Positions 708 through 40,847 of a DNA stretch of 64,000 nt are shown here, in pieces. The DNA lies in contig NBMB01000012.1 of NCBI GenBank assembly GCA_002084765.1, positions 21,084 through 85,083 on the forward strand, in the 5' to 3' direction. A program made the position numbers and the translations under genes. The stretch comes from Candidatus Cloacimonetes bacterium 4572_55. GTDB taxonomy: Bacteria; 4572-55. How positions within the stretch are numbered: position 1 is the stretch's first letter; every line of letters begins with the position of its first letter. The notes below the pieces were generated by a model, which searched no databases, was not told where the DNA came from, and saw only the letters and a program-made list of their open reading frames with translations.

Positions 708-2159
708 TTATCTCGAAAATTGATCTTTGGTCCAGCGGTATATCTGTGTCTCAGTTGATTTTTTTTGAGAGACGTCCTCTTGGGAATCCGTGATACCCTC
801 CTCAAATTCATAGACTGCGAGTGCCGCTCCCTTCTTTTCCCATCTCCAACATCGGTATGCGTTTTCCATACAGGGATAAGATTCGATCTCGTGCGTCATA
901 TCCAGTTTATTATCATGGATACGATAAAATCGGGTGGCGTAAGCCTCCGCCGCGCCGCATAATCCCCGCCCCGTGCGAGAAAAATAGATACGGGTTACGG
1001 TAAATCCGGGCGAACCGTCGGCATAATGAAACGTCTCAAGACCGTAGGTCGTGGAGAACTGATGCCCGAAGTCTTGCACAGCGGCTTCGTCGAACCAACT
1101 GCCATAAGTCCGGTCCGCGCCGATAAGCAAGGCGTCTTTTAGGACGCTGTAGGCGACATTATCCTCATAACCGGCTGTCACGACCACATAGTCGTCCAGT
1201 TGATAGGCCGCAGTGATTTGGGGATAGAACTTCTTAAAATCGAACTTGAGGTTGCCCTGATCGTCCCATTCGGGTCGCAGCTCATGCAGGGTAAAACGCC
1301 ACTCCGAGCCGTCCCATTCCCAATAGCCGTTGGGATAGCAGCTGGGAAGAGGAGTTAAAGGGGACAACGCGGCTAATGCAGTTGGCTCAGAATTCTGTCG
1401 AAGAAGAGAGTGAATTTTATTGACTTGAATAGGTTGGCTGAGTTGAATCCAACTAAAAGTAGTCGGATCCGAGAACTTCCGCTCCGGCGAGGAGGAAAAT
1501 AGCATATCTTGCGCGGGTTTCTCGGGGTTGTCCGCGTCAATGACGTCGATCAGCGCGCCCAAGTCTGTGATTATGGGATCGGGTAGCTGAAAAAATCCTT
1601 CTGCAGACAAGGCGCACTCCAACCGATAGCCGGTCGATGTGGGAACCATGACGAATTGGATCGCGTCCAGAAGATCATCGCGATTTTCTGGAAGACAATA
1701 GGAGCTGATTCCGTCAAAACCAAACGCGATCTGGATCAGTCGGGTACGATCCACAACCAAAGTGGAAAGCTGTCCTTTATCATCTTCATTAGTGAACGAT
1801 TCTCGATCTTGATTCGGAATCGTGTCGAACCATATCTCGATATGATCGCTTTTCAATAACTGATCCGCGGACTTGGCTTTAACAAGAACATCGTCTGTTA
1901 CCACAACCGACAAATAGAGACGCTGCCGGTCAGAAGCCAGACTGTAGCTGAATTGTAAATCCTCAGCGCCTTCCCAGTTTCGCAATTTGAACACCGCATG
2001 GTTGCTTGTGGAGACAACGGTCTTTGGAAGGTCGTCCCAATCTGATAAGTCGCCATCTACGACGATCCCGCTCTCGGCAACCGCGGATATGATCGTGGGC
2101 TGGGCCCCGGCGAGGGCACTACTTGTACAAAAAATAATCAAAAAAAATAAAACTCTCAT
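708..2159 (-). CDS. secreted hypothetical protein
   Basis: Long ORF 708..2216. The signal-peptide-like MRVLFFLIIFCTSSALAGA begins at the internal Met (2159), so that start is preferred. No recognisable catalytic motif. Confidence 0.55.
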   Translation of the reverse strand: MRVLFFLIIFCTSSALAGAQPTIISAVAESGIVVDGDLSDWDDLPKTVVSTSNHAVFKLRNWEGAEDLQFSYSLASDRQRLYLSVVVTDDVLVKAKSADQLLKSDHIEIWFDTIPNQDRESFTNEDDKGQLSTLVVDRTRLIQIAFGFDGISSYCLPENRDDLLDAIQFVMVPTSTGYRLECALSAEGFFQLPDPIITDLGALIDVIDADNPEKPAQDMLFSSSPERKFSDPTTFSWIQLSQPIQVNKIHSLLRQNSEPTALAALSPLTPLPSCYPNGYWEWDGSEWRFTLHELRPEWDDQGNLKFDFKKFYPQITAAYQLDDYVVVTAGYEDNVAYSVLKDALLIGADRTYGSWFDEAAVQDFGHQFSTTYGLETFHYADGSPGFTVTRIYFSRTGRGLCGAAEAYATRFYRIHDNKLDMTHEIESYPCMENAYRCWRWEKKGAALAVYEFEEGITDSQEDVSQKKSTETQIYRWTKDQFSR

Positions 2160-2208
2160 ATCTCCCTCCAAAATTTTAATAGCGTGTTTTATGGGTCTAT
2201 CTAAAAAG

Positions 2209-2417
2209 TTATCCACAATTACGCGGAAGATCCCGTATAAAAAATTATCTATTTTTTGGATAAGAAAATGAATTTAATAGGTAAAATATTTTTTAAACAA
2301 CTTATTGATAAACCTATAGTTACCTAAAAACTTAACCTTTGTGTTATCTCTTAAATTTTCTGAAATCTTTATGGGTATCCCATATCGTTTTGTGGATAAC
2401 TTTTAGAGTTATCCACA
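2209..2417. promoter_or_regulatory. DnaA-box cluster with AT-rich tract (candidate oriC or DnaA-regulated region)
   Basis: Perfect TTATCCACA at 2209-2217 and 2409-2417, perfect reverse TGTGGATAA at 2391-2399, one-mismatch box at 2265-2273. AT-rich stretch 2225-2340 lies between them. Confidence 0.5.
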
Positions 2418-2449
2418 AAACCACCAACGGTTTGTGCGTAATCTACAGA

Positions 2450-2830
2450 TCAATCGTTATAACTGATCGTATGATCTGTTTCGTCGATTTGGTCGTTCAA
2501 CAGATCAAGGATTTCAAATGCCAAGATATTGACCAGGCTAATGGTATCGAAATCTGACGATTCTTTCAACAAGATGGTGTGCATTCCCTTCAGTTTTTTC
2601 TCAATAGAAAGGTCTTTATCATCTCCATATTTGATGTCTTCTATCACGGCGTCGATCACTTCCCCGATCCACATCAACAAAATCCGGCGCTTGTGCTTGT
2701 TATTCTGCACCTTCTTGACATCCAGATATTTGTCATTTTTTTGATTGGTGGTCATAAATCGGTCGCCTTGCGCTATTAAATTGTCGGCATACGCTTGTAA
2801 AACTTCGACCACACCCTCATGAATTTTCAT
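2450..2830 (-). CDS. hypothetical acidic protein (126 aa)
   Basis: Clean ORF with no overlap; no recognisable domain. Confidence 0.5.
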   Translation of the reverse strand: MKIHEGVVEVLQAYADNLIAQGDRFMTTNQKNDKYLDVKKVQNNKHKRRILLMWIGEVIDAVIEDIKYGDDKDLSIEKKLKGMHTILLKESSDFDTISLVNILAFEILDLLNDQIDETDHTISYND

Positions 2831-4048: not shown

Positions 4049-4299
4049 AGCGCAGTAACCGAGATAATGAGTTAAGGAGTGCCGCCATACAGCGCAAAAA
4101 TATGAAAACTAAATGAAATATAATCAGATTCTCATAAAATTGCTTGCGATTCTTAAAAAATTCGATAATTTCTAACCAAAATAATTCGTCACAAGAGGCA
4201 GTAAAGCATGGAAGGTGATCCGCAGATTACGCAAATTACCATAGAGTTTTGACGCAAAATTCGTCATTCGTCATTCATAGAAACATATTCGGCATTAAC

Positions 4300-4510
4300 A
4301 AGTGCCATAAGGCTTAATCGGGAAACCGGTGCGATTCCGGTACAGTCCCCGCTACTGTAATTGGTGACAAACCCAACCACGCCACTGTCCTGTAGATGGG
4401 AAGGCATGGGTGACGGATGATCCATGAGTCAGGAGACCTGCTTGATAATGCGCTGGACCGATCCTTCGGGGGGTGAGGAGAAGTGTCGTCGGCACAGTTG
4501 GATGAATCCA
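4300..4510 (+). promoter_or_regulatory. cobalamin (B12) riboswitch
   Basis: AATCGGGAAACCGGTGCGATTCCGG, GCCACTG, and B12-box-like AGTCAGGAGACCTGC at 4427-4441, immediately upstream of a TonB-dependent receptor gene. Confidence 0.8.
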
Positions 4511-4596: not shown

Positions 4597-6762
4597 ATGA
4601 AAAACGTTACTATTATTTTCCTCTGGATAGCATTTTTCCTCCCACCCTGGACAGTTCAAGCCGACGCGGTAAGCGGTCGATTGGTGGACGCGCAGACAGG
4701 ACGACCAGTTATCAGCGCGGAGATCCGATTCCATCTCGACCAATCGCTCTCCGAATATCGCGTCAGCGACGATCAAGGTCGCTTCTTTTTTGCCATAGAA
4801 AAATCCATCGCCTGTTCCCTGACGATCTGTCATATCGGATACAAAACCGTGACTCTGCCAGTTGATTATTCGACGACCATGAGAGTCTGTTTACAACCGA
4901 ATCTGCTTGAATCTCCGACTCTGCTGGTAACTGGATCCAGATTGCCCATGTTTGCCAACGATATCGCGGGTTCAATCAGCCTGATCACTTCCGAGGACTT
5001 GGCGCACGCAACGGGCTCCTCTCTGTCCGACGTGATGCGCGGGGTCGGGGGGATGACGCAACGAGCGTACGGAGGACCAGGAGGATTGCGCGCCTTATCG
5101 ATTCGAGGAGGCGCGACGCATCACACCGTAGTTTTGCTGGACGGCGTCCGCATCAATAGCGATCAAAATGGGATTCTGGACGGAAATATTTTGCCATTAT
5201 CGATTATCCGACAGATTGAGGTCTATAAAAGTGGCAATTCCGCGGTACATGGCGCGGACGCGGTCTCCGGCGTGATCAATATCTCGACGGAACAGCACCA
5301 AATTCCTGGATTTCGGATAGCTGCCAGCGTCGGTTCATTCGGCTATCGGGATATAAGCGGATCTGCCTCGCAATCTCACGATTCCTTCGGAGATCTGAGC
5401 ATGATTTTTTCCGATGAACGGTCGGACGGGGATTTCCCCTATCGTTACAGGGGGAAAGAACAGAAGCGGACACATGCCGATTATCACCGTCAAAATTTAT
5501 TGGTCAAATACAGCGTTAATCCATTTCAAAATCTATCTTTAAAATGGCAGACTCTTTATCATCAATCAGATGTCGGCGCGCCGAGACAGATCAGTCAAGG
5601 CGAAAGTTCTGCAAGCCAAGGCGCGCGCCAACATGATGAAAATTTGTTCGGGCAGTGCGTTGTGACATATCTGTTTCACAAAAAGCACTCGTTAGAACTG
5701 ACTCTGTTCGGTCAATCGGATGATCAGAAATACAATGACCCAAATATTGTTATCAACGGCGAAGTTCTCGATAGCCGTCACGAACCGAGTAGCGCGGGCG
5801 GGCGCGTCGATTTTCAGGCAAAAAATAGAGGAATTCATTCGTTCGATATGGGCTATGAATTTCGGATCGGGAAAATTCGCAGCACAGATGTCCGCGGAAC
5901 TATTCGTGGCCGACATAGCTTTTTTTTCCTGGATGTGATTCGCCCTCAAATTGGAGGGGAATCTGCGCGCGTCTCGTTGCAACCAGCTTTTCGTATCGAT
6001 CATTTTTCCGATTTTGGTGCTCAGTATAGCCCAAAGATCGGCATACTGGTATCGATAGGCTCAATAATGGATCGGGCACTCTCAATATCCAGTTATGCAA
6101 ATGTCGGACGTAACTTCCGAGCACCCACATTCAACGATATGTACTGGCGAGAAGGCGGCAATCCCGAGCTTGATCCGGAACAGGCTCTGCACGCAGAAGC
6201 CGGAGCTCTTGTGAGCCAGAGTCATGGTGCGATCAGGTGGGAAATCAAAGCCAGCACTTTTTTGAATCACATCAAAAACCAAATTATCTGGCAGCCGAAC
6301 AGCGACGGTATCTGGCGACCGCAAAATTTGAGCGAGGTTCATATCCATGGTTGGGAGAGCGACGTAACGCTGATTTTATTTCATAATCGCCTTAAATTAA
6401 ACGGTAACTGTAGCCGAGTCCTTTCTCGACATCACGCGCCGGGGCAACACACACACAACCAACAATCGCCTTATATACCGGAAACCTCGTGCAACTTCTC
6501 TCTTCAAGCAAAACAGAAAGGGTGGCGAGGATCAGTCTCGATTCATTATGAGGGACAGCGGTATATCACTCTGAACAATTCATCCTATCTCCCTGATTAT
6601 TACCGTGTTGACGGGCAGATCGGCTATCGATTTTTATGGAAAAATTACAAGCAGACCGTGGAAATCGAAGCACTGAATGTAACCGACGCCCGTTATGAGA
6701 CGATCAAATATTTCCCAGCAGTTAGCCGAGAATATAGGCTGCGATTTGTTATTTCATTCTAA
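4597..6762 (+). CDS. TonB-dependent outer-membrane receptor, probably cobalamin transporter (BtuB-like)
   Basis: Signal peptide, CarbopepD_reg-like N-terminus, plug-domain blocks (LLVTGSR, SIRGG, VVLLDGVRIN), C-terminal aromatic residue (…VISF), B12 riboswitch in leader. Confidence 0.85.
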   Translation: MKNVTIIFLWIAFFLPPWTVQADAVSGRLVDAQTGRPVISAEIRFHLDQSLSEYRVSDDQGRFFFAIEKSIACSLTICHIGYKTVTLPVDYSTTMRVCLQPNLLESPTLLVTGSRLPMFANDIAGSISLITSEDLAHATGSSLSDVMRGVGGMTQRAYGGPGGLRALSIRGGATHHTVVLLDGVRINSDQNGILDGNILPLSIIRQIEVYKSGNSAVHGADAVSGVINISTEQHQIPGFRIAASVGSFGYRDISGSASQSHDSFGDLSMIFSDERSDGDFPYRYRGKEQKRTHADYHRQNLLVKYSVNPFQNLSLKWQTLYHQSDVGAPRQISQGESSASQGARQHDENLFGQCVVTYLFHKKHSLELTLFGQSDDQKYNDPNIVINGEVLDSRHEPSSAGGRVDFQAKNRGIHSFDMGYEFRIGKIRSTDVRGTIRGRHSFFFLDVIRPQIGGESARVSLQPAFRIDHFSDFGAQYSPKIGILVSIGSIMDRALSISSYANVGRNFRAPTFNDMYWREGGNPELDPEQALHAEAGALVSQSHGAIRWEIKASTFLNHIKNQIIWQPNSDGIWRPQNLSEVHIHGWESDVTLILFHNRLKLNGNCSRVLSRHHAPGQHTHNQQSPYIPETSCNFSLQAKQKGWRGSVSIHYEGQRYITLNNSSYLPDYYRVDGQIGYRFLWKNYKQTVEIEALNVTDARYETIKYFPAVSREYRLRFVISF

Positions 6763-6818: not shown

Positions 6819-7919
6819 ATGCGTTTTCAAAATCGATCGATTTATTCACTCGCTGTGCTTATTGCTTTGACAGTGCTTTTCTGTTCCATGTCTTGCTCGG
6901 ATGATGAGGCTACTCAGGAGGAATTTCCGTTTCATGAAGACGGAATATTTATTGTAAACGAGGGGAATTTTAATTCAGGAAACAGCAGTCTTTCCTTTTA
7001 TAGCTTTGATAAAAATCGGATTTACAATGGATTATTTGAAAAATGGACTGGACAGGAGCTGGGTGATGTGGCGCAAAGTATGGTCATTGAATACAATATG
7101 GGCTATATTGTGGTCAATAACTCCGATAAGATCGAAATGATTCGGATAACCGACGGGGAATCGCAAGGGACTATCGAACTTGAGCAAGGCTTCAGCCCCC
7201 GGGACATCGTCTTTACGACCTATGGGGAAAAAGCCTATATTAGCAGCCTGTATCAAAACAAGGTGGCAGTTATCGACATGGATTCGCTGACCGTCTCGGG
7301 GACTATCCCGGTTGGCAATAATCCAGAAGAGATGGAGTTGATCGACGGGAAGTTGTATGTGGCAAATTCCGGCTTTGGTAGCGGAAATTCCATCTCCGTG
7401 ATCGATACGGAAAGTGATACAGTGATTGGAGAGATCGCGGTCGGGGACAATCCGGTGAATCTGGAATATACCGCTACCCTTACCTCTGGCACCCATTTGG
7501 TGATCTTATGCCACGGTAGTTACAATGACTTCGACGATCCGAACGACGATACTCCGGGACAGTTGGCGATTTATGACATCTCGTCCGAGTCGATTATCCA
7601 CACGCGGACCATCGACGGGCATCCAACGGATTTGGCGGTCAATTATCCTGGCGTGGGCTATTATATCCTGAACAACAAGGTGGTCTCGTTCAGCGTCTCG
7701 GATTGTTCTGTGATTAACGACAGCCTGATCGTTGTGGATTCTGGCGCGCTCTACAGTCTGGAAGCCCAGGGCGGTCGCATTTTTGTGGGAAATGCAATGG
7801 ATTTTGTCTCGAACGGAAAAGTAACTGTCTATGACGAGGAGGGCGTCCAGCTTTTTTCTGCCAATGTGGGCGTCAATCCCGGGGCGTTTGCTTTTGTCGG
7901 ATGGTTTACGATTGACTAA
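6819..7919 (+). CDS. YncE/YVTN-type beta-propeller surface lipoprotein (possibly BtuG-like B12-binding partner)
   Basis: Signal peptide with Cys-containing lipobox-like segment (LFCSMSC). Repeated YVTN-like blades (KLYVANSG...ISVIDTESD). Sits 57 nt downstream of the receptor gene. Confidence 0.65.
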   Translation: MRFQNRSIYSLAVLIALTVLFCSMSCSDDEATQEEFPFHEDGIFIVNEGNFNSGNSSLSFYSFDKNRIYNGLFEKWTGQELGDVAQSMVIEYNMGYIVVNNSDKIEMIRITDGESQGTIELEQGFSPRDIVFTTYGEKAYISSLYQNKVAVIDMDSLTVSGTIPVGNNPEEMELIDGKLYVANSGFGSGNSISVIDTESDTVIGEIAVGDNPVNLEYTATLTSGTHLVILCHGSYNDFDDPNDDTPGQLAIYDISSESIIHTRTIDGHPTDLAVNYPGVGYYILNNKVVSFSVSDCSVINDSLIVVDSGALYSLEAQGGRIFVGNAMDFVSNGKVTVYDEEGVQLFSANVGVNPGAFAFVGWFTID

Positions 7920-15588: not shown

Positions 15589-18012
15589 ATGGCAACAATT
15601 TCTTTTTTCATTGCAATGCTCCTTTCACTCTTTTTTGCAGGTCAAATAAAAGCGGAGGAGCCGGTTTCGACTTCATATCAAACGCCCCCTTCGGAGATCG
15701 TGGAATTGATCGACGCGCCTCTCACTCCTCATATCAGCGTCTCGCCGGATCGGAGTGCCATGCTTTTGTTGGAGCGTCCTACACTGCTGACCCTTTTTGA
15801 TCTGGCGCAGCCGGAACTCAAACTTGCGGGGATACGGTTCAATCCCCACACTATGGGGTCGAGTCGAGTTCGATATTATCGAAAAATTGTCCTGAAGCGA
15901 ACGGCAGATTCCGTGGAGCAACCGCTTTTCAATATGCCGGAAAATCTCAAGGCAAGCGATGTGCAATGGTCGCCGGACAGCCGTCGCGTCGCGTTTATCC
16001 ACACTGTCGAGAATGGCGTTGAGTTGTGGGTGATCGAGATGGAGACTGGAGAGGCAAAGAGGTTGACCGAGCCGATAATCCACAACGCGTACGACTATCC
16101 ATATCATTGGGTTTCGGACAGCAAAACACTGATCTGCAAATTGATCCCGACTCACCGAGGAGATCCGCCTCCAGAGCCGACTCTCCCAGACGGTCCCATC
16201 ATTCGACAAAATTTGGGGGAAGAAACCCCGGGGCGCACATATCAAGATTTGCTGGAAAATCCGTATGACGAGAGCCTTTTTGAGTATTATTTCACCGCCC
16301 AACTCGCACGAGTCGATCAGGATGGGCGGATCGCTGAGATCGGTAAAAAAGGTATAATCAAATGGAGCGACTCCTCCCCAAATGGACGCTATCTGCTTGT
16401 GAAATCAACTCATGGTCCCTTTTCATACGCGGTTCCGGCGTATCGCTTTCCGGTCAAAATCCAGGTTTGGGACATTGAGGGAAAAATCATAAAGGAGCTG
16501 GCTGACCTTCCATTAGCCGACAATATACCGATCGCGAGCGGGTCTACGCGAGCGGGTCGCCGACAATTTTCTTGGCGAGCAGACGTCCCTGCGACATTGA
16601 TCTGGACAGAGGCACAGGATCAGGGCGATCCACGTATCGAGACCGATGTCCGAGACAAGGTATTCAGCCTGCCCGAGCCTTTTGATACCGAACCGAAACC
16701 GCTGATCTCGTTATCGATGCGGTATTATTCGATCCAATGGGGCCACGGCGATCTGGCACTTGTGAGCGAGGTGTGGAGAAAAACCCGTCAAACCCGAACG
16801 TGGATTATCCATCCTGATACGCCGAGGCATGATCCGGAAATTTTGTTCGATCGGAGTTGGGAGGATCAGTATAACAATCCCGGCAGACCTATGACTCGAC
16901 CGACAGAGTTCGGAACCCGAGTCTTACTGACCGAGAACCATACCATTTATTTATCTTGTGAGGGTGCTTCTCCGGAGGGAAATCGTCCGTTTGTCGATGA
17001 AATGGACTTGGAAACCAGAGAGACCACCCGTTTATGGCGTTCTGAGGCTCCTTATTATGAAAACCCAGTGAGCTGGATGGATTTTGAACAACGCCTGCTC
17101 CTGACGCGGCGAGAATCTGTTGACGAGCCGCCAAATTACTATATCAGGGATTTGAAAAGCGGAGAATTGAGAGAGCTGACCGAATTTCTCCACCCCACGC
17201 CCCAGTTGAAAGATGTGCAAAAGGAGTTGATTCGCTATCAACGCGCGGACAGTGTAGACTTAAACGCGTTGCTGTATCTTCCCCCAGGATACGATAAAGA
17301 AAAAGAGGGTCCCCTGCCGATGTTGGTCTGGGCGTACCCTCGTGAATTCAAAAGCGCAGACGCTGCGGGTCAGATATCTGATTCGCCCTATCGATTTGTC
17401 CGGGTGGGCTATTGGTCGCCGCTGCTCTGGCTGACACAAGGCTACGCGGTGTTGAGCAACGCGACCATGCCTATCATCGGCGAGGGAGAGGCAGAACCGA
17501 ACGACACGTATGTGGATCAACTTGTCGAAAGCGCGCAAGCCGCTGTGGACGAAGTTGCCCGGCGAGGCGTTGCAGACCCAGCCAGGATAGCGATCGGCGG
17601 ACATTCGTATGGCGCGTTCATGGCTGCCAATTTACTGGCTCATTCTGATATATTTTGCGCGGGAATCGCTCGGAGCGGCGCGTACAACCGCACCTTGACT
17701 CCGTTCGGATTCCAAGCTGAGGATCGAACGTTATGGGAAGCTCCTCAGGTCTATATCGGCATGTCTCCGTTCATGCACGCTGACAAAATCGAAGAGCCGT
17801 TGCTCTTAATTCACGGCGAGGCGGATAACAATTCCGGCACGTATCCCATGCAGAGCGAACGGTTTTACAGCGCAGTGAAAGGACATGGTGGAACTGTCCG
17901 TTTGGTTATGTTGCCGTATGAGAGCCATGGATACCGAGCCAGAAAATCCGTCGTGCACGGAGCCTGGGAAATCACTGAATGGTTGGATCGTTATGTGAAA
18001 AGAAGCCGGTAG
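15589..18012 (+). CDS. S9-family serine peptidase (prolyl oligopeptidase / acylaminoacyl-peptidase type) with N-terminal beta-propeller
   Basis: Signal peptide; catalytic Ser in GGHSYGAF, then HGEADNN and ESHGY completing the Ser-Asp-His triad. Confidence 0.85.
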   Translation: MATISFFIAMLLSLFFAGQIKAEEPVSTSYQTPPSEIVELIDAPLTPHISVSPDRSAMLLLERPTLLTLFDLAQPELKLAGIRFNPHTMGSSRVRYYRKIVLKRTADSVEQPLFNMPENLKASDVQWSPDSRRVAFIHTVENGVELWVIEMETGEAKRLTEPIIHNAYDYPYHWVSDSKTLICKLIPTHRGDPPPEPTLPDGPIIRQNLGEETPGRTYQDLLENPYDESLFEYYFTAQLARVDQDGRIAEIGKKGIIKWSDSSPNGRYLLVKSTHGPFSYAVPAYRFPVKIQVWDIEGKIIKELADLPLADNIPIASGSTRAGRRQFSWRADVPATLIWTEAQDQGDPRIETDVRDKVFSLPEPFDTEPKPLISLSMRYYSIQWGHGDLALVSEVWRKTRQTRTWIIHPDTPRHDPEILFDRSWEDQYNNPGRPMTRPTEFGTRVLLTENHTIYLSCEGASPEGNRPFVDEMDLETRETTRLWRSEAPYYENPVSWMDFEQRLLLTRRESVDEPPNYYIRDLKSGELRELTEFLHPTPQLKDVQKELIRYQRADSVDLNALLYLPPGYDKEKEGPLPMLVWAYPREFKSADAAGQISDSPYRFVRVGYWSPLLWLTQGYAVLSNATMPIIGEGEAEPNDTYVDQLVESAQAAVDEVARRGVADPARIAIGGHSYGAFMAANLLAHSDIFCAGIARSGAYNRTLTPFGFQAEDRTLWEAPQVYIGMSPFMHADKIEEPLLLIHGEADNNSGTYPMQSERFYSAVKGHGGTVRLVMLPYESHGYRARKSVVHGAWEITEWLDRYVKRSR

Positions 18013-18086
18013 CTCAACGGACTTGGACGTTTACGGCGAGCTGGATTAGTTTTCTTTATTTTCAAGTCCCTTACAGCATGTCGGCA

Positions 18087-20699
18087 TTATAGTATAGATA
18101 TTTTTTTGCGAATAGCACCCCAAATGACTTCTCCGGTTACTTTGATAAATCTGCCGACAAATATAACCAGAGGAGTTATACGGTGCCGGTTCAGGACAGC
18201 AATTGCCGAGCCGATCAATACGATAAACAGGCTGATCAGGTTGGTAACAGCGCGACGTAGCCACAAGCCGGTATAGGAAAATTTCAGCGGAAATGTCTCA
18301 TCCTGATCTACGACTTTTTTTTCAAACTTATAACGCAAGCCGGATAAAGGGAGATGGACTTTGACCGAATTAACGCCGATCGGTCCCATCAGAGCTTGAC
18401 GATTTTCGGCTCCATATCCTGAACTCTTTTTTTCACCGTCCAATTCAAATTTTATAACCTGACTAATCCACACGCCAACAGGCTTTCCGCGCTGAAGAGC
18501 CGGTTCGTACCTGCACTGCTTTACTGCTGCAATCGCGGCTTCATCGAGACCGGTATTCGGTACGCCTTTCATAACAAGCACATTTTTTACACTCCCATCA
18601 ATATCGATATATACGTTGAGAATGACTTTGCCCTCAATGCCGGCTTCCTGCGCCAATAGTGGATATATCGGTTTGATTTTCCCGATTATCTGCGGGGGGG
18701 TTTCATAAGGGATAAAAATGGGACTTTCCCATGGATTTACGTAAGAATTGAAGTCCGCATCTTCTGTCGGTGCAGTTGGATTTGGCTTGGCCATCGCTGA
18801 TGGAGATGGCTCTTTAGATTGTGTAATGGATTCAATATCATCATCGGGTACATCTAACATAAAGATTTTTACTTCTTCTTCCTCTTCCTCCATTGGAATT
18901 TCAAACTTGGCTCCAGATTTCGGCGCGGGTTCAGAGAGGAACCCGATTGATTCTGATTTATTTTGCTTAGGCTCATGCCTCAAATCCCACTCACCGTCAT
19001 CAAAATCATAATGGTATCCTTCTGGAACGTAAACATTTAGCTCTACCTTATTTGTGAAAATATCGCACCGAGGCAGAGCGCATGCATTATCCGACTTTAT
19101 GCCAAATTCTAAAATTGGTTGGGTATAAATTAGCTCGACGTCAAAAGGGCGGGCATGATCGCCGTTACCAGTTGAGCGCACCAAAGGGATGAGGATTTTT
19201 CCTTGTTCATTTCTAGAGGGCTTACCCCGCTTTCCGTCCACATAAACTGTCCAGATAGAAGCGTGTGGCGGCAGTTCCATTTCCATAAACTGCTTATATG
19301 TATTGCGAATTGAGTAAATGATTTGATAAAGCAGCTTACCTTCTGATAAATACAAAGCTGTTGCGTGGGCAGACTCAATGATTGTGCTAATTCCCTCCAT
19401 CCGCTCATGCTGCGTGATGCTGATATCCAGCTCGTATGGGTGTTTAGAGTAGAAAAACGCAAACAGAATAGGGCGAGAAGATTCAGACAAAATCCATTGT
19501 GGAAGATTGAGATAATCCATTTTGTTCAGGTCAAAACTTTCCTGGACTTGCACCTCGATCGCGCTCTCGGCAATGACAGCGATTTCTCCGGATTCACGGA
19601 CAGCGTCAATAACCTGCAATCCGGGATACGTCGCGGCCAACGCGCCGACTCCCAACATCTTTTCTGTCTGAACCGAAAAAGTCATGTTGCCTCTATGGAT
19701 TTCGTATAAAAAGGGAATCTCCAGCACGCTACCAATATCGGTTTCGCGCACGCGCCATTCGCTCAGGGCATGACCCTCGACCTTGACAACTTCATAATCA
19801 TCCGGAAGTTGCAGCGAGACGCTGGTCAAGCTATTTTGGATAATTTCAAGATCGACCCAAGTTTTTGCGCGCAAAATATCTCTATCGACAGATATAATCG
19901 TTCGCAGGTTGGCATTGAATCGTGCCGGTCTTTTTTCCCTCGGCTCAGTTTTACTCGCCCATCTGAATGTCATTGAAGATGTGGGCGGAAGGTAGCCAGT
20001 CAGATGTGACCCTGCGTCCGACTCATGAATCCTAGTATGGATTGCCGGCGAGACCTGGAGACCCAGATGATCATCAGGCAGCGTAAAATCAACCTGATTG
20101 ATCATAGCCCTGACCGTGGACAAGTTGACAAGTTGATCGCCCTGATCTACCGAGAAAATAGCTTTTATCTCATGATACCCGCTTTGTGTGACGCTGACAT
20201 GATGCCAGTTATTTTTTGTCACAATGACAGCGGGTTCATTGTTGATCCACAGATCTTCTAAGGCGACAAGAGAGTGGATCACAGGAATATTATGCTGAAC
20301 AGGGCCCCCACGGTCAAAAACATACACGGTAAAAATCGCTGTAAACCAAGCATTCATCTGACCAGCCTGACCCGTATAGCGACTTTTTGTGATGATATAA
20401 TTACACGGCGGAGTCGGAGGTGAGACCTGGATAGGCTTCATCTGGCTTAAAATTCGACGGAATTGATCCCGTTTGAGAGTCACAACGCCCTCTTTCAGCG
20501 AGACGTCTGTCTGGACATCTCCGCCCGCCTGCCGCATGATCAACTGAAATTCATCCCAACTCATCTGGATTTCATCAGAATCGAGTTTAAGCAGCTCTTG
20601 TAAGTCAGACCAATTCACACCCTGATATGCAGAACAGACATCTGGTATGACGATAATTATCAAGATCAACAAAAAAAATCCAAAAATATCTTTCATCAT
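18087..20699 (-). CDS. large envelope protein of unknown function with embedded TonB C-terminal-like domain and C-terminal TM helix; paralog of the adjacent gene
   Basis: Signal peptide. Shares blocks with the neighbour (IWTVYVDGKR, RPILFAF...LDISI). TonB_C-like segment PIYPLLAQEAGIEGKVILNVYIDIDGSV...YEPALQRGKPVGV near 18450-18740. Confidence 0.7.
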   Translation of the reverse strand: MMKDIFGFFLLILIIIVIPDVCSAYQGVNWSDLQELLKLDSDEIQMSWDEFQLIMRQAGGDVQTDVSLKEGVVTLKRDQFRRILSQMKPIQVSPPTPPCNYIITKSRYTGQAGQMNAWFTAIFTVYVFDRGGPVQHNIPVIHSLVALEDLWINNEPAVIVTKNNWHHVSVTQSGYHEIKAIFSVDQGDQLVNLSTVRAMINQVDFTLPDDHLGLQVSPAIHTRIHESDAGSHLTGYLPPTSSMTFRWASKTEPREKRPARFNANLRTIISVDRDILRAKTWVDLEIIQNSLTSVSLQLPDDYEVVKVEGHALSEWRVRETDIGSVLEIPFLYEIHRGNMTFSVQTEKMLGVGALAATYPGLQVIDAVRESGEIAVIAESAIEVQVQESFDLNKMDYLNLPQWILSESSRPILFAFFYSKHPYELDISITQHERMEGISTIIESAHATALYLSEGKLLYQIIYSIRNTYKQFMEMELPPHASIWTVYVDGKRGKPSRNEQGKILIPLVRSTGNGDHARPFDVELIYTQPILEFGIKSDNACALPRCDIFTNKVELNVYVPEGYHYDFDDGEWDLRHEPKQNKSESIGFLSEPAPKSGAKFEIPMEEEEEEVKIFMLDVPDDDIESITQSKEPSPSAMAKPNPTAPTEDADFNSYVNPWESPIFIPYETPPQIIGKIKPIYPLLAQEAGIEGKVILNVYIDIDGSVKNVLVMKGVPNTGLDEAAIAAVKQCRYEPALQRGKPVGVWISQVIKFELDGEKKSSGYGAENRQALMGPIGVNSVKVHLPLSGLRYKFEKKVVDQDETFPLKFSYTGLWLRRAVTNLISLFIVLIGSAIAVLNRHRITPLVIFVGRFIKVTGEVIWGAIRKKISIL

Positions 20700-23981: not shown

Positions 23982-25181
23982 TTAATCGCTCACAATAATA
24001 TAATTACGGATACCTTTATTCTTTACCAAATTTTCAGCGGACAGCTTCGCCTCCTCCCTGCTACGATAATTTCCGACCCAGACTCGATACAGAATCTTTC
24101 CGCCGCCGGAATCTACCTGAACGATCGTGATCTCAGTTTCAGCGTCTTGGATCGTCGATTTCAGCAATTGAGCGTTTTCCGAACTTGAATACGCGCCGAT
24201 CTGAATATGAAATTGTTCACCAGACGCACTCCCATAAGTCCTTTTATCGTTGGACAGGGTCGGAGTCTCCGCTGAAGGCGTCACATCAACGGCTTCACGC
24301 GGGGGGGTATCCATTTTCGGTTTTGCCACCGCGGGAGGCTCTACGCGAGGAGGCGGACTTGGTTCGACATTCGTAACCTGTGGCGTTTTTTCCGTCTTGT
24401 TCGGCACCGGTTTATCCAAAATACTGAAGTCGAGATTCTTTCCTCGCACCATGGCGGCCTCAAAACTTTCCGGATAATTCTCTAACACCCGTTGGTACGC
24501 TGTCAGCGATTCCCGTTTGCGACCACTTTCCGAAAGGCTTTCTCCATACCGATAATACGCCACGCTCATCACGTCGCTGTTGGGATATTCTCTGATCAGC
24601 TGTTGGTATTTCTCAATAGCGGTTTTAAAATCTTTCCGCTGTTGGTAAATATAGGCGAGATCAAGCAAGGCCCACGACGCCTTTTCCGATAAAGGATAAG
24701 AGGTTATAGCACTGTTCAACGCATTTTTCGCCAACTCAATTTCGTCCGCCATGTAGAGCGAATTGGCACTCCAATATGCAGCTTCGGAACATAAATCGCT
24801 CTGTGGATAATCGACTGTAATACGATGATATAAATCCGCCGCTTTTTTGTAGTTTTTCTTGGCGTAATCATATTGAGCCAGTCCCAACAAGGCGTCGTCC
24901 GCAAAAGAGTGGGACGGATGTTCCTGTAAGATTTTCTCGAAATATTTAATTGCATGATCCGGATTCATCTCCAGTCTTGCCAGATACATATAGACATTCG
25001 GCATGTATTCCGAAGAGCCATACGTATTCACAAATTCCGAAAAAGTGCTTCGTGCATTATCAAGATCGCCTTGATTGTAGAGATCAACACCTTTTTGATA
25101 CGCCTGGTGATCGAGCGTTTGACTCCATGACATGGAGAATGACAGAAACAAAAAAATTAATACTACTACGAATTTTCGCAT
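23982..25181 (-). CDS. TPR-repeat protein with C-terminal SPOR (peptidoglycan-binding) domain
   Basis: Signal peptide, several TPR-like repeats, Pro-rich linker, SPOR-like block FHIQIGAYSS...YRVWVGNY. Confidence 0.75.
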   Translation of the reverse strand: MRKFVVVLIFLFLSFSMSWSQTLDHQAYQKGVDLYNQGDLDNARSTFSEFVNTYGSSEYMPNVYMYLARLEMNPDHAIKYFEKILQEHPSHSFADDALLGLAQYDYAKKNYKKAADLYHRITVDYPQSDLCSEAAYWSANSLYMADEIELAKNALNSAITSYPLSEKASWALLDLAYIYQQRKDFKTAIEKYQQLIREYPNSDVMSVAYYRYGESLSESGRKRESLTAYQRVLENYPESFEAAMVRGKNLDFSILDKPVPNKTEKTPQVTNVEPSPPPRVEPPAVAKPKMDTPPREAVDVTPSAETPTLSNDKRTYGSASGEQFHIQIGAYSSSENAQLLKSTIQDAETEITIVQVDSGGGKILYRVWVGNYRSREEAKLSAENLVKNKGIRNYIIVSD

Positions 25182-39146: not shown

Positions 39147-39761
39147 CTACAAAAACCACCCGGATAACTGCAAATAACACCGTTTTTCCGCATCTGGTTC
39201 GTCGTGTGGGTGCCACCAACGGCAGAGCGAGACACGCAGCAACGCGCCTGCGGGGATTTCTGGGATCGAGTCCGCCACGCCGACATATGACAGATTCATT
39301 TCGTGGGATTTCAGAGAATATCGAGTGCGACCGCGAGCGTTGGTATACAGGATGAGCTCCTCGTCTGGCTGCCAGAATGCGACGCTTTGTTCTGGAATAC
39401 CATTTTTTTCAGAGATATAGAGACTGCCTCCGCGAGATCGATTCAGCATGCCATGAAAAAGTGTGTCGGGACCCCCGGAACTGATCTGCACGCGGTTCTG
39501 CAACGTTTGTTTAAGATCCCGCGCCCGACCCAGATATTCGCTATGGTAAACGATCACATCCTCCACATGTGGAGGAAACTTTTCTTCCTGCGACGGTGAA
39601 AAGTCCATGTCCCACACCTGACCGACCTCATATTTGGTCGTTATCGGCTGATTTTTGCATCCGGGCTTCATCAGTCGAATATTTTTATTGGTATCCTTAG
39701 CCAGAGCTCCCACACAAAATTTTCCGACCATGTGGGTTTTAGCGACAATGAGAACTCTCAT
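39147..39761 (-). CDS. hypothetical protein (204 aa), last gene of the ATPase/DUF488 operon
   Basis: Start ATG at 39759-39761 overlaps the upstream stop by 4 nt (ATGA). The ORF track extends to 39854 but that part overlaps the upstream gene. No recognisable motif. Confidence 0.55.
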   Translation of the reverse strand: MRVLIVAKTHMVGKFCVGALAKDTNKNIRLMKPGCKNQPITTKYEVGQVWDMDFSPSQEEKFPPHVEDVIVYHSEYLGRARDLKQTLQNRVQISSGGPDTLFHGMLNRSRGGSLYISEKNGIPEQSVAFWQPDEELILYTNARGRTRYSLKSHEMNLSYVGVADSIPEIPAGALLRVSLCRWWHPHDEPDAEKRCYLQLSGWFL

Positions 39762-40246
39762 GGCAAAATATGCTCCGTGTGTATGTTCAAATCCATTTCT
39801 AAACGGTCTGTAATGAGAGACCGGTGACATGCTTTCGGATCTTGTTCCACACAAAATAGAACAACAACGAGATCGTGGATCCCAAAGCTATCAACAAATT
39901 TTTGCGCGTTAAAGTCAGTGAGACACGCGGCGTTATAGGCTTTGATAAAAGCAGGGCTGAGCGCGGCTCGATTCCGTTTTGTTATTTTTTGGCACTGGTC
40001 GTCCGCCCGTTGCACATCACGAATCGCGTTGTTGGGTGCCAGGTCTTTGCGATGGATGTAGCCTATGCCTAATGCTTTCAGTTTTTTTTGTAAGTAGATA
40101 CTGTTGACAAAGGCATACTTTGCCCCGCGCATGCCTCGACGATACCGAATGTCGCAAAACAGACCCACGTTATGCCGAATCAGGGCGTCGAAAAAAGTGG
40201 ATTCGTCAAAGCCATACACGCCAATAGTCATAAATTTCAATATCAT
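39758..40246 (-). CDS. DUF488-like protein (divergent paralog)
   Basis: N-terminal MTIGVYGF...CDIRYRRG and shared C-terminal CHRS motif; 4-nt overlap with the upstream gene. Confidence 0.6.
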   Translation of the reverse strand: MILKFMTIGVYGFDESTFFDALIRHNVGLFCDIRYRRGMRGAKYAFVNSIYLQKKLKALGIGYIHRKDLAPNNAIRDVQRADDQCQKITKRNRAALSPAFIKAYNAACLTDFNAQKFVDSFGIHDLVVVLFCVEQDPKACHRSLITDRLEMDLNIHTEHILP

Positions 40247-40812
40247 AATTTCCTCTTATTTTTGCGATAGGATTTCACAGAGCCAAACGTGTGGCCAAAC
40301 AAACCCTGTTGCCCTCCAGTTAGTCGCCGCATCACCTCTGACTGGCTTTTGAGTTCCCCCAGCTCATCAATGTGCCGCACGTCAATTCCGTTCTGAACCA
40401 GTGTTTCACTGATCAACTTACTCCGATGACACTGCTCTGGTTTGAGTTCGGAACACATCAAGGCGACCCGATATTTTTTGTCCAGCGCAGTTGCGAGGCG
40501 AGAAATACCGTCACGATAAAAAGGAGCTCGGCTCAGCTTGGCATAATCGATTTTCTCATTGGTAAAATATTTCATATCATCGGGTTTACCGCCCAACTGC
40601 CGCCCTATAAACAGATACCCGACGCCGTTTTCCTTCAGACGCCTTTCCAATTTAATTTTTGAAAAGTCCTCATTAAACGCGGAAAACGGCGCAGATCGAA
40701 CGTCTGCCACATAGTCGATTCCATAGCATTTTATCAGAGCTATAAAATCGCCAATAGCGCGGTTGCCGTATCCAATAGTATAGATACTGTTCAGGGTATT
40801 CGGTTCGGTCAT
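40243..40812 (-). CDS. DUF488-family protein (YeaO-like)
   Basis: Hallmark N-terminus TIGYGNR...VADVRSAPFS, GVGYLFIGRQLGG, and CHRS motif. Confidence 0.7.
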   Translation of the reverse strand: MTEPNTLNSIYTIGYGNRAIGDFIALIKCYGIDYVADVRSAPFSAFNEDFSKIKLERRLKENGVGYLFIGRQLGGKPDDMKYFTNEKIDYAKLSRAPFYRDGISRLATALDKKYRVALMCSELKPEQCHRSKLISETLVQNGIDVRHIDELGELKSQSEVMRRLTGGQQGLFGHTFGSVKSYRKNKRKL

Positions 40813-40847
40813 TGGATCAAAAGAATGTTTGGAATTTAGGCTTTCAC

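Follow-up and report, generated by a model that had tools for sequence, protein, structure and literature searches.

A conserved, regularly spaced cluster of DnaA boxes beside an orphan gene in an uncultured Zixibacteria-related lineage

The locus and its flanking genes

We analyzed a stretch of 64,000 nucleotides ("the window") from MAG 4572_55. Near its left end, an intergenic region with several matches to the DnaA box separates an orphan gene of 126 amino acids from a gene for a secreted protein with a CBM9 domain (Table 1). Both gene calls are identical on the public contig (109,798 bp), and the two proteins are identical to the hypothetical proteins B6244_04315 and B6244_04320 of this MAG. 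In a phylogenomic study, MAG 4572_55 was not part of Cloacimonadota but a sibling of Zixibacteria (bioRxiv 10.1101/2021.10.08.463351).

Table 1. Features of the DnaA-box cluster and its surroundings (positions within the window)
Feature	Position	Strand	Sequence or remark
CBM9-domain secreted protein, 483 aa, signal peptide	708-2159	-	downstream of the cluster
Whole intergenic DnaA-box cluster	2160-2449		flanked by the 126-aa gene's stop codon and the CBM9 ATG
Box F, perfect	2209-2217	+	TTATCCACA; 49 nt upstream of the CBM9 ATG; 3' end towards the AT-rich tract
AT-rich spacer between the two box groups	2236-2350		GC 0.20-0.23
Box E, one mismatch	2255-2263	-	TTATCCAAA
IHF-like consensus	2298-2310	-	TATCAATAAGTTG; mid-spacer, single match
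Box C/D remnant, decayed	2358-2378	-	ATACCCATA (3 mismatches) and ATTTCAGAA (5 mismatches), from alignment with relatives
Perfect 13-bp inverted repeat, boxes A and B with flanks	2388-2420		TTTTGTGGATAAC-N7-GTTATCCACAAAA, read from the sequence
Box B, perfect	2391-2399	-	TTATCCACA; 9 bp from box A; 3' end towards the AT-rich tract
Box A, perfect	2409-2417	+	TTATCCACA; outer half of a divergent pair; 32 nt past the stop codon of the 126-aa gene
126-aa orphan gene	2450-2830	-	always precedes the cluster; no Pfam match
rRNA operon, complete: 16S, tRNA-Ile, tRNA-Ala, 23S, 5S	47890-52797	-	

The same sample has been assembled independently (ENA), with -20.9 to +51.5 kb of the window's coordinates on one scaffold and about 51.8-79.4 kb on another. 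Using the NCBI and ENA contigs together, we could read the region from -9.3 to +73.6 kb. At about 51.5-51.8 kb, the ENA assembly is interrupted within the 16S gene, and only the NCBI contig joins the sequence across the rRNA operon. When ENA scaffold_3103 (L139) is compared position by position with the window at 51.9-61.9 kb, the identity before 61.9 kb is only 78%, so the two assemblies must differ by one or more indels. One example is the ORF at 55190-55585, which encodes 131 amino acids in the window and 159 amino acids in the ENA gene call.

The 126-aa protein has only eight homologues, with 44-63% identity. When 1.84 billion representatives were searched exhaustively with a profile, only the protein's own cluster was returned, an alignment of the family had no match in metagenomes, and the protein had no match among plasmids and phages. 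Its AlphaFold model is helical, with a mean pLDDT of 64.7, and had no fold match in the PDB with E below 1. At the 3' end of the gene there are four GATC sites within 60 bp (2448-2506), which arise from the Asp codons of the protein's conserved acidic tail (LDLLNDQIDETDH). The window as a whole contains 461 GATC sites (7.2 per kb), or about 1.8 times the 1/256 expectation. As for the CBM9 protein, only two distant matches were found in the genome collection (29-31% identity), and near both of them there were neither perfect boxes nor clustered one-mismatch sites.

Two other parts of the window have recognizable content. A cobalamin riboswitch (4283-4459, plus strand, 124 bits) lies directly 5' of the gene for a TonB-dependent receptor (4597-6762, plus strand), which is a BtuB-like arrangement. 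Possible defense-related genes are found at 39147-41924 and 53637-54539 (both on the minus strand; low-GC stretch). They encode a DuOB-domain protein, a DUF488 protein, an AAA_21/AbiEii-like ATPase, and an HsdM-like N6-methylase that, at 300 amino acids, looks truncated.

Clustering of the DnaA boxes

An initial annotation of this DNA, made without database searches, had reported three perfect DnaA boxes and a one-mismatch box within about 210 bp of intergenic sequence. We found all four where they had been placed (boxes A, B, F, and E), and together they span 209 bp. The annotation had also estimated that less than one perfect 9-mer would occur by chance in the window, and this was borne out: the expectation is 0.48, we counted seven, and none of 100 shuffled sequences reached seven. 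The remaining four perfect boxes (at 7594, 15995, 24802, and 28394) are scattered and all lie within genes. The 11-mer GTTATCCACAA is common to the three clustered perfect boxes and is absent from the four scattered ones. Overall, the boxes are clustered non-randomly, and a cluster by chance is far from likely. (Two of the scattered boxes belong to copies of a 15-mer, AGTCGATTATCCACA, at 7588-7602 on the plus strand and at 24802-24816 on the minus strand, in unrelated genes.)

The boxes do flank an AT-rich stretch, as had been claimed. The GC content is 0.23 at 2200-2299 and 0.20 at 2250-2349, as compared to about 0.45 for the window. AT-richness is not unique to the cluster: other intergenic DNA is similar, with for example a GC content of 0.26 at 2900-2999.

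Conservation in relatives

A cluster of boxes follows the stop codon of the 126-aa gene in all six of the relatives for which enough downstream DNA is available. (In another relative, L013, we saw no box, with only 100 nt visible downstream of the gene.) Thus, seven members of the lineage have the cluster: the window, L014, L011/L012, L010, L015/L016, L017, and L143. The distance from the stop codon to the cluster ranges from 33 to about 210 nt, and the relatives have four to seven boxes.

Reading in the direction of the 126-aa gene, the members share a common plan: box A (inverted), 9 bp, box B, 13 bp, box C, 2-3 bp, box D (...CCACAAGTTATCCACAA), about 110-130 bp of AT-rich DNA, and then further boxes. 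In the relatives, boxes B, C, and D point in the same direction, with the 3' end of D towards the AT-rich tract and the opposite box at the far end. Where the corresponding boxes are present, the spacing is constant. The gap between A and B is 9 bp in the window, L014, L011, and L015 and 8 bp in L017 and L143 (L010 does not have the inverted box A); the gap between B and C is 13 bp in four lineages (L014, L011, L015, and L010), with differing sequence inside; and each of the six relatives has 2-3 bp between C and D. Little of the remaining spacer can be aligned between members.

The individual boxes of the window can mostly be matched to those of its relatives. Orthologues of box A are present in L014, L011, and L015. 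At the place of the decayed C/D remnant, the relatives have TTATCCACA-AG-TTATCCACA. Box E is TTTTCCACC in L011 and L015 and TTATCCACC in L010; the window's own box E lies just before the place of the relatives' conserved TT(T/A)TCCACC box, so that its orthology, as judged by alignment, is approximate. L011 and L015 have a second inverted pair, TGTGGAGAA-N9-xxxTCCACA. Box F is orthologous to the TGTGGAGAA of this pair, and box G, the partner of box F, has decayed in the window. Among the copies that we compared, only the window has lost the tandem C/D; it retains perfect copies of A, B, and F, and a box E with one mismatch.

The genes around the cluster vary. On the upstream side, L011 has trkA-trkH, L010 has trkH, and the window has hypothetical genes. 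On the downstream side, the CBM9 gene is found in the window and in L010, and L015 has an ABC-3 permease operon. As the neighbors vary on both sides, the boxes must have been selected in their own right, with the 126-aa gene as their fixed partner. The cluster is evolutionarily conserved, with fixed spacing, and is linked to the 126-aa gene. This conservation is a new result of our analysis.

Two further observations concern the relatives' contigs. L143 is a second, divergent member of the lineage from the same Guaymas sample; its 126-aa protein is 45% identical to that of the window, and it has an intact cluster of its own. In a relative with 42% (CBM9) and 56% (126-aa) identity, all five Logan contigs (L005-L009) begin exactly 105 nt upstream of the CBM9 gene, and the contigs with the 126-aa gene and the cluster (L011/L012) stop about 535 nt past the cluster; the two sets do not visibly overlap. 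A break that recurs in this way suggests that, in that relative, the cluster and the CBM9 gene are separated by an element that is repeated or variable.

Is the cluster a replication origin?

The initial annotation proposed that the region is either a replication origin or under the control of DnaA. The part about DnaA has held up well, given the conservation of the cluster and its fixed spacing across seven members, but the part about the origin, as far as it could be checked on this DNA, has not, because of the GC skew and the head-on genes that we describe below. Still, the cluster could be the chromosomal oriC of this Zixibacteria-related lineage, unlinked to dnaA, and its anatomy gives some reason to think so. 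In that case, a DnaA oligomer on boxes B, C, and D would open the adjacent AT-rich tract, and the copy in the window would operate in a simplified form, from boxes B and F, both of which face a tract with 20-23% GC. The four to seven boxes of the relatives are phased and conserved, and the AT-rich tract begins 13-35 bp beyond the tandem boxes; in L011 and L143, it contains (TA)n runs. It is the 3' ends of the tandem boxes that face the tract, which is the orientation of R1 relative to the DUE in E. coli. Furthermore, the 126-aa gene always reads into the cluster, and transcription into the origin region is also seen for mioC at the oriC of E. coli and for dnaA at incC of B. subtilis. The genes next to the cluster are locally divergent from it, and in L015, all 10 kb downstream of the cluster are co-oriented away from it.

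We also scanned metagenomes with the phased three-box DNA pattern. There were at least 120 matches, and 22 of those listed have dnaA or dnaN no more than a few hundred bases away. The 126-aa family was absent from the listed matches. The three-box pattern is thus widespread; it fits origins but is not specific to them.

Other aspects of the anatomy count against an origin. We searched for DnaA-trios by the rule for the basal unwinding system (BUS), namely a box, a spacer of 0-16 bp, and at least three trios, or NAN repeats (PMC8287927). We found only minimal matches with three trios, which were at non-homologous places and were equaled in 16-40% of shuffled sequences, so the matches are at the level of chance and are not conserved. 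(About 15% of predicted origins have no trios; PMC8287927.) Also, the tandem boxes, which are the best conserved part of the cluster elsewhere, are lost in the window genome. On the origin-like side, tandem boxes that are 2-3 bp apart, as in the relatives, are the most common arrangement in the BUS (PMC8287927).

The genomic context is harder to reconcile with an origin. The initial annotation had noted that dnaA is not in the window, and this was correct over a wider region: with the E. coli proteins as queries, tblastn gave no match to dnaA, dnaN, recF, or rpmH between -9.3 and +73.6 kb, and Pfam scans of the ORFs agree, so the usual neighbors of an origin are absent from this region. The minus-strand genes on the right of the cluster include the rRNA operon, tmRNA, tRNA-Val, pheS, infC, thrS, and the suf genes, and rpoC lies on the left, on the plus strand; all of these are transcribed towards the cluster. 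If replication began at the cluster, then its forks would run head-on into the transcription of rpoC (9 kb left of the cluster) and of the rRNA operon (45 kb right of it), as well as of thrS-infC-pheS, the suf genes, and tmRNA, and about two-thirds of the coding length from 2.4 to 64 kb would be on the lagging strand. To be head-on to the fork is rare for either the rRNA operon or rpoBC.

The GC skew gives a similar picture. The raw skew follows the strand of the genes, and the cumulative skew has a shallow local minimum near the cluster (about -1.3 to +3.7 kb), which would favor an origin, but it falls steeply from 18 to 58 kb. We used four-fold degenerate sites to separate the transcription and replication terms of the skew. 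On the left side, the strand-corrected skew was +0.136 (CI -0.06 to 0.25; 3 plus-strand genes); it was +0.066 at 2.4-18 kb and -0.148 at 18-59 kb (2 plus-strand genes). Thus, across the 83 kb covered, with few genes per class, there is no change from negative to positive at the cluster, and the skew switch that the initial annotation had expected of an origin is absent once the strand of the genes is accounted for. This result counts against an origin but is not decisive, since there are few genes per class. Four-fold skew on the short contigs of the relatives was too noisy and gave contradictory results.

Near 18 kb, where two genes converge (about 18012-18087), the positive corrected skew does turn negative, and both rpoC (from the left) and the rRNA operon (from the right) point towards this zone. 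The change is either terminus-like or marks a rearranged block. No dif-like site was found for it with the proteobacterial/firmicute consensus. We found no inverted repeats bounding the 18-59 kb block, and hence there is no sign that this segment is invertible or misassembled.

Overall, the cluster has an origin-like anatomy, but its context speaks against an active oriC, which it probably is not. We consider it rather unlikely, though worth keeping in mind, that the cluster is the oriC of this lineage. If it were, then the origin would be unlinked to dnaA and would have head-on rRNA and rpoBC genes, which would be unusual.

Other explanations for the cluster

Alternatively, the cluster may be no more than a promoter region under the control of DnaA, which would thereby couple the downstream gene (here, CBM9) to the status of replication. 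DnaA is a known transcription factor, and the promoters that it controls include those of dnaA, nrdAB, and sda (PMC3245932). Box F is close to the start codon of the CBM9 gene, and the arrangement of the 126-aa gene and the CBM9 gene with boxes in between recurs in L010. However, the downstream gene is not conserved. The initial annotation's suggestion that the boxes might regulate the adjacent secreted-protein gene is weakened by the permease in L015 and by the fact that the constant partner of the boxes is the 126-aa gene. Also, four to seven phased boxes across about 250 bp go far beyond what the known DnaA-regulated promoters need, and a promoter scan found no minus-strand promoter in 2160-2300 and nothing above the shuffled expectation. 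So, a role that is limited to the regulation of a promoter seems unlikely to us. We give still less credence to the idea that the cluster is a relic, that is, an oriC in the relatives that lost this function here after a rearrangement and kept some binding of DnaA. A relic would account for the decay of boxes C, D, and G in the window while the full architecture is intact in relatives, for the varied flanking genes on both sides, and for the 18-59 kb block, whose strand bias and skew are opposite to those of its flanks. However, none of boxes A, B, and F has a mismatch, and they are nearer to the consensus than in L011, which implies that selection persists; the boundaries of the block have no inverted repeats; and nothing places the origin at the cluster in the relatives either, as their skew is too noisy. 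We view a relic origin as very unlikely.

The perfect inverted repeat around boxes A and B is of the kind that dimeric regulators bind, so one might also imagine that the cluster is the palindromic operator of some other dimeric DNA-binding protein, if it did not arise by chance. The shuffled sequences argue against chance. As for an operator, the relatives also retain the 9-mer as single copies and as tandem copies with one orientation, which fits an asymmetric site that is bound by a monomer, such as the DnaA box, and not a palindromic operator. Both of these ideas are highly improbable. Finally, the 126-aa protein and the cluster could form a lineage-specific module, or else the cluster could be a true origin that tolerates the head-on rRNA operon and rpoBC; we think that this is quite doubtful, if less so than a relic. 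In the case of a module, the 126-aa protein may act on DnaA or on the cluster, by analogy to YabA, DiaA, HobA, or SirA, and there would be a new kind of control of initiation in an uncultured Zixibacteria-related lineage.

A putative DnaA-assembly locus outside the origin

We tentatively favor, as close to an even call, that the cluster is a conserved, non-coding, putative DnaA-assembly locus outside the origin, similar to the DnaA-box clusters (DBCs) of Bacillus subtilis or to datA of E. coli. Judging from the sequences of the seven members, it is probably a real and selected DnaA site, and a function in binding DnaA is strongly supported. As the surroundings in the genome are unlike those of an origin, a secondary site for control by binding of DnaA is more likely, and it is from this context that we infer that the locus is not the origin. 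The window genome itself is in favor of a locus outside the origin: boxes C, D, and G have decayed and boxes A, B, and F have stayed perfect. Against a titration site, the anatomy is more origin-like than such a site would need.

We propose that DnaA would occupy two groups of boxes that flank the AT-rich spacer, with the high-affinity pair A and B at one end and boxes E and F at the other. In the relatives, the same-orientation boxes B, C, and D have starts that are 22 and 11-12 bp apart and could support a head-to-tail oligomer of DnaA. The spacer of 110-135 bp, being AT-rich and presumably flexible or bent, might then bring the two groups of DnaA into contact. Such a complex would keep DnaA from the origin, or else it would modulate DnaA. 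As a side effect, it might cover the promoter region of whichever gene is downstream, which here is the CBM9 gene. In this scheme, the binding of DnaA, its oligomerization, the bending of the DNA, and the effects on the availability of DnaA or on transcription are all predicted from the arrangement of the boxes.

DnaA-box clusters outside of the origin are understood in only a few model bacteria, and this would be a conserved and rigidly spaced example from an uncultured Zixibacteria-related lineage in the FCB superphylum (Fibrobacterota-Chlorobiota-Bacteroidota). Its seven natural variants of a single architecture, one of them without the tandem boxes, make it a concrete test object. It also illustrates that the clustering of boxes should not by itself be used to call origins on contigs from MAGs.

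Comparison with known systems

With oriC and the BUS, the cluster shares a phased array of same-orientation boxes, the last of which faces an AT-rich tract, with an opposite box at the far end (PMC8287927, PMC6669920). The spacing of 2-3 bp between the tandem boxes of the relatives is also BUS-like. Unlike oriC, it has no convincing DnaA-trios, no skew switch, and no dnaA or dnaN nearby; highly expressed genes converge on it; and in the window genome, the tandem boxes are missing.

Several clusters of DnaA boxes outside oriC are known: there are six multi-box clusters in B. subtilis (PMC3245932), and E. coli has datA, DARS1, and DARS2 (PMC5742627, PMC6868365). The cores of DARS1 and DARS2 resemble our cluster in that they have at least three boxes, with an oppositely oriented pair that is followed by boxes in the same direction (PMC6868365). 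When we read DARS1 and DARS2 from the MG1655 genome, both had a convergent pair, TTATCCACT-N5-TGTGGATAA-N3-TGTGTATTA. A site of the DARS type is ruled out because the pair in our cluster is divergent with a 9-bp gap (TGTGGATAA-N9-TTATCCACA), whereas the two boxes of the DARS pair converge across a gap of 5 bp.

The E. coli datA locus is also a non-coding cluster of boxes, perhaps needing a site for a DNA-bending protein between the boxes (PMC5742627, PMC10380432). Our cluster does have an IHF-like match in the middle of the spacer. In contrast to datA, this match is single, and the orthologous stretch in L015 is off the consensus by eye; moreover, the IHF-like consensus WATCAANNNNTTR has 12 matches in the window, this one included, as compared to 4 expected. 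The match is a weak hint of a datA-like design. The DBCs of B. subtilis are, like our cluster, intergenic groups of several consensus DnaA boxes that lie away from dnaA; they affect the timing of initiation by binding DnaA, and some of them regulate neighboring genes (PMC3245932). In contrast to the DBCs, the boxes in this lineage have a fixed spacing, form two groups around a conserved AT-rich spacer, and have a single orphan gene as their partner. The cluster more likely belongs to a kind that is already known in model bacteria.
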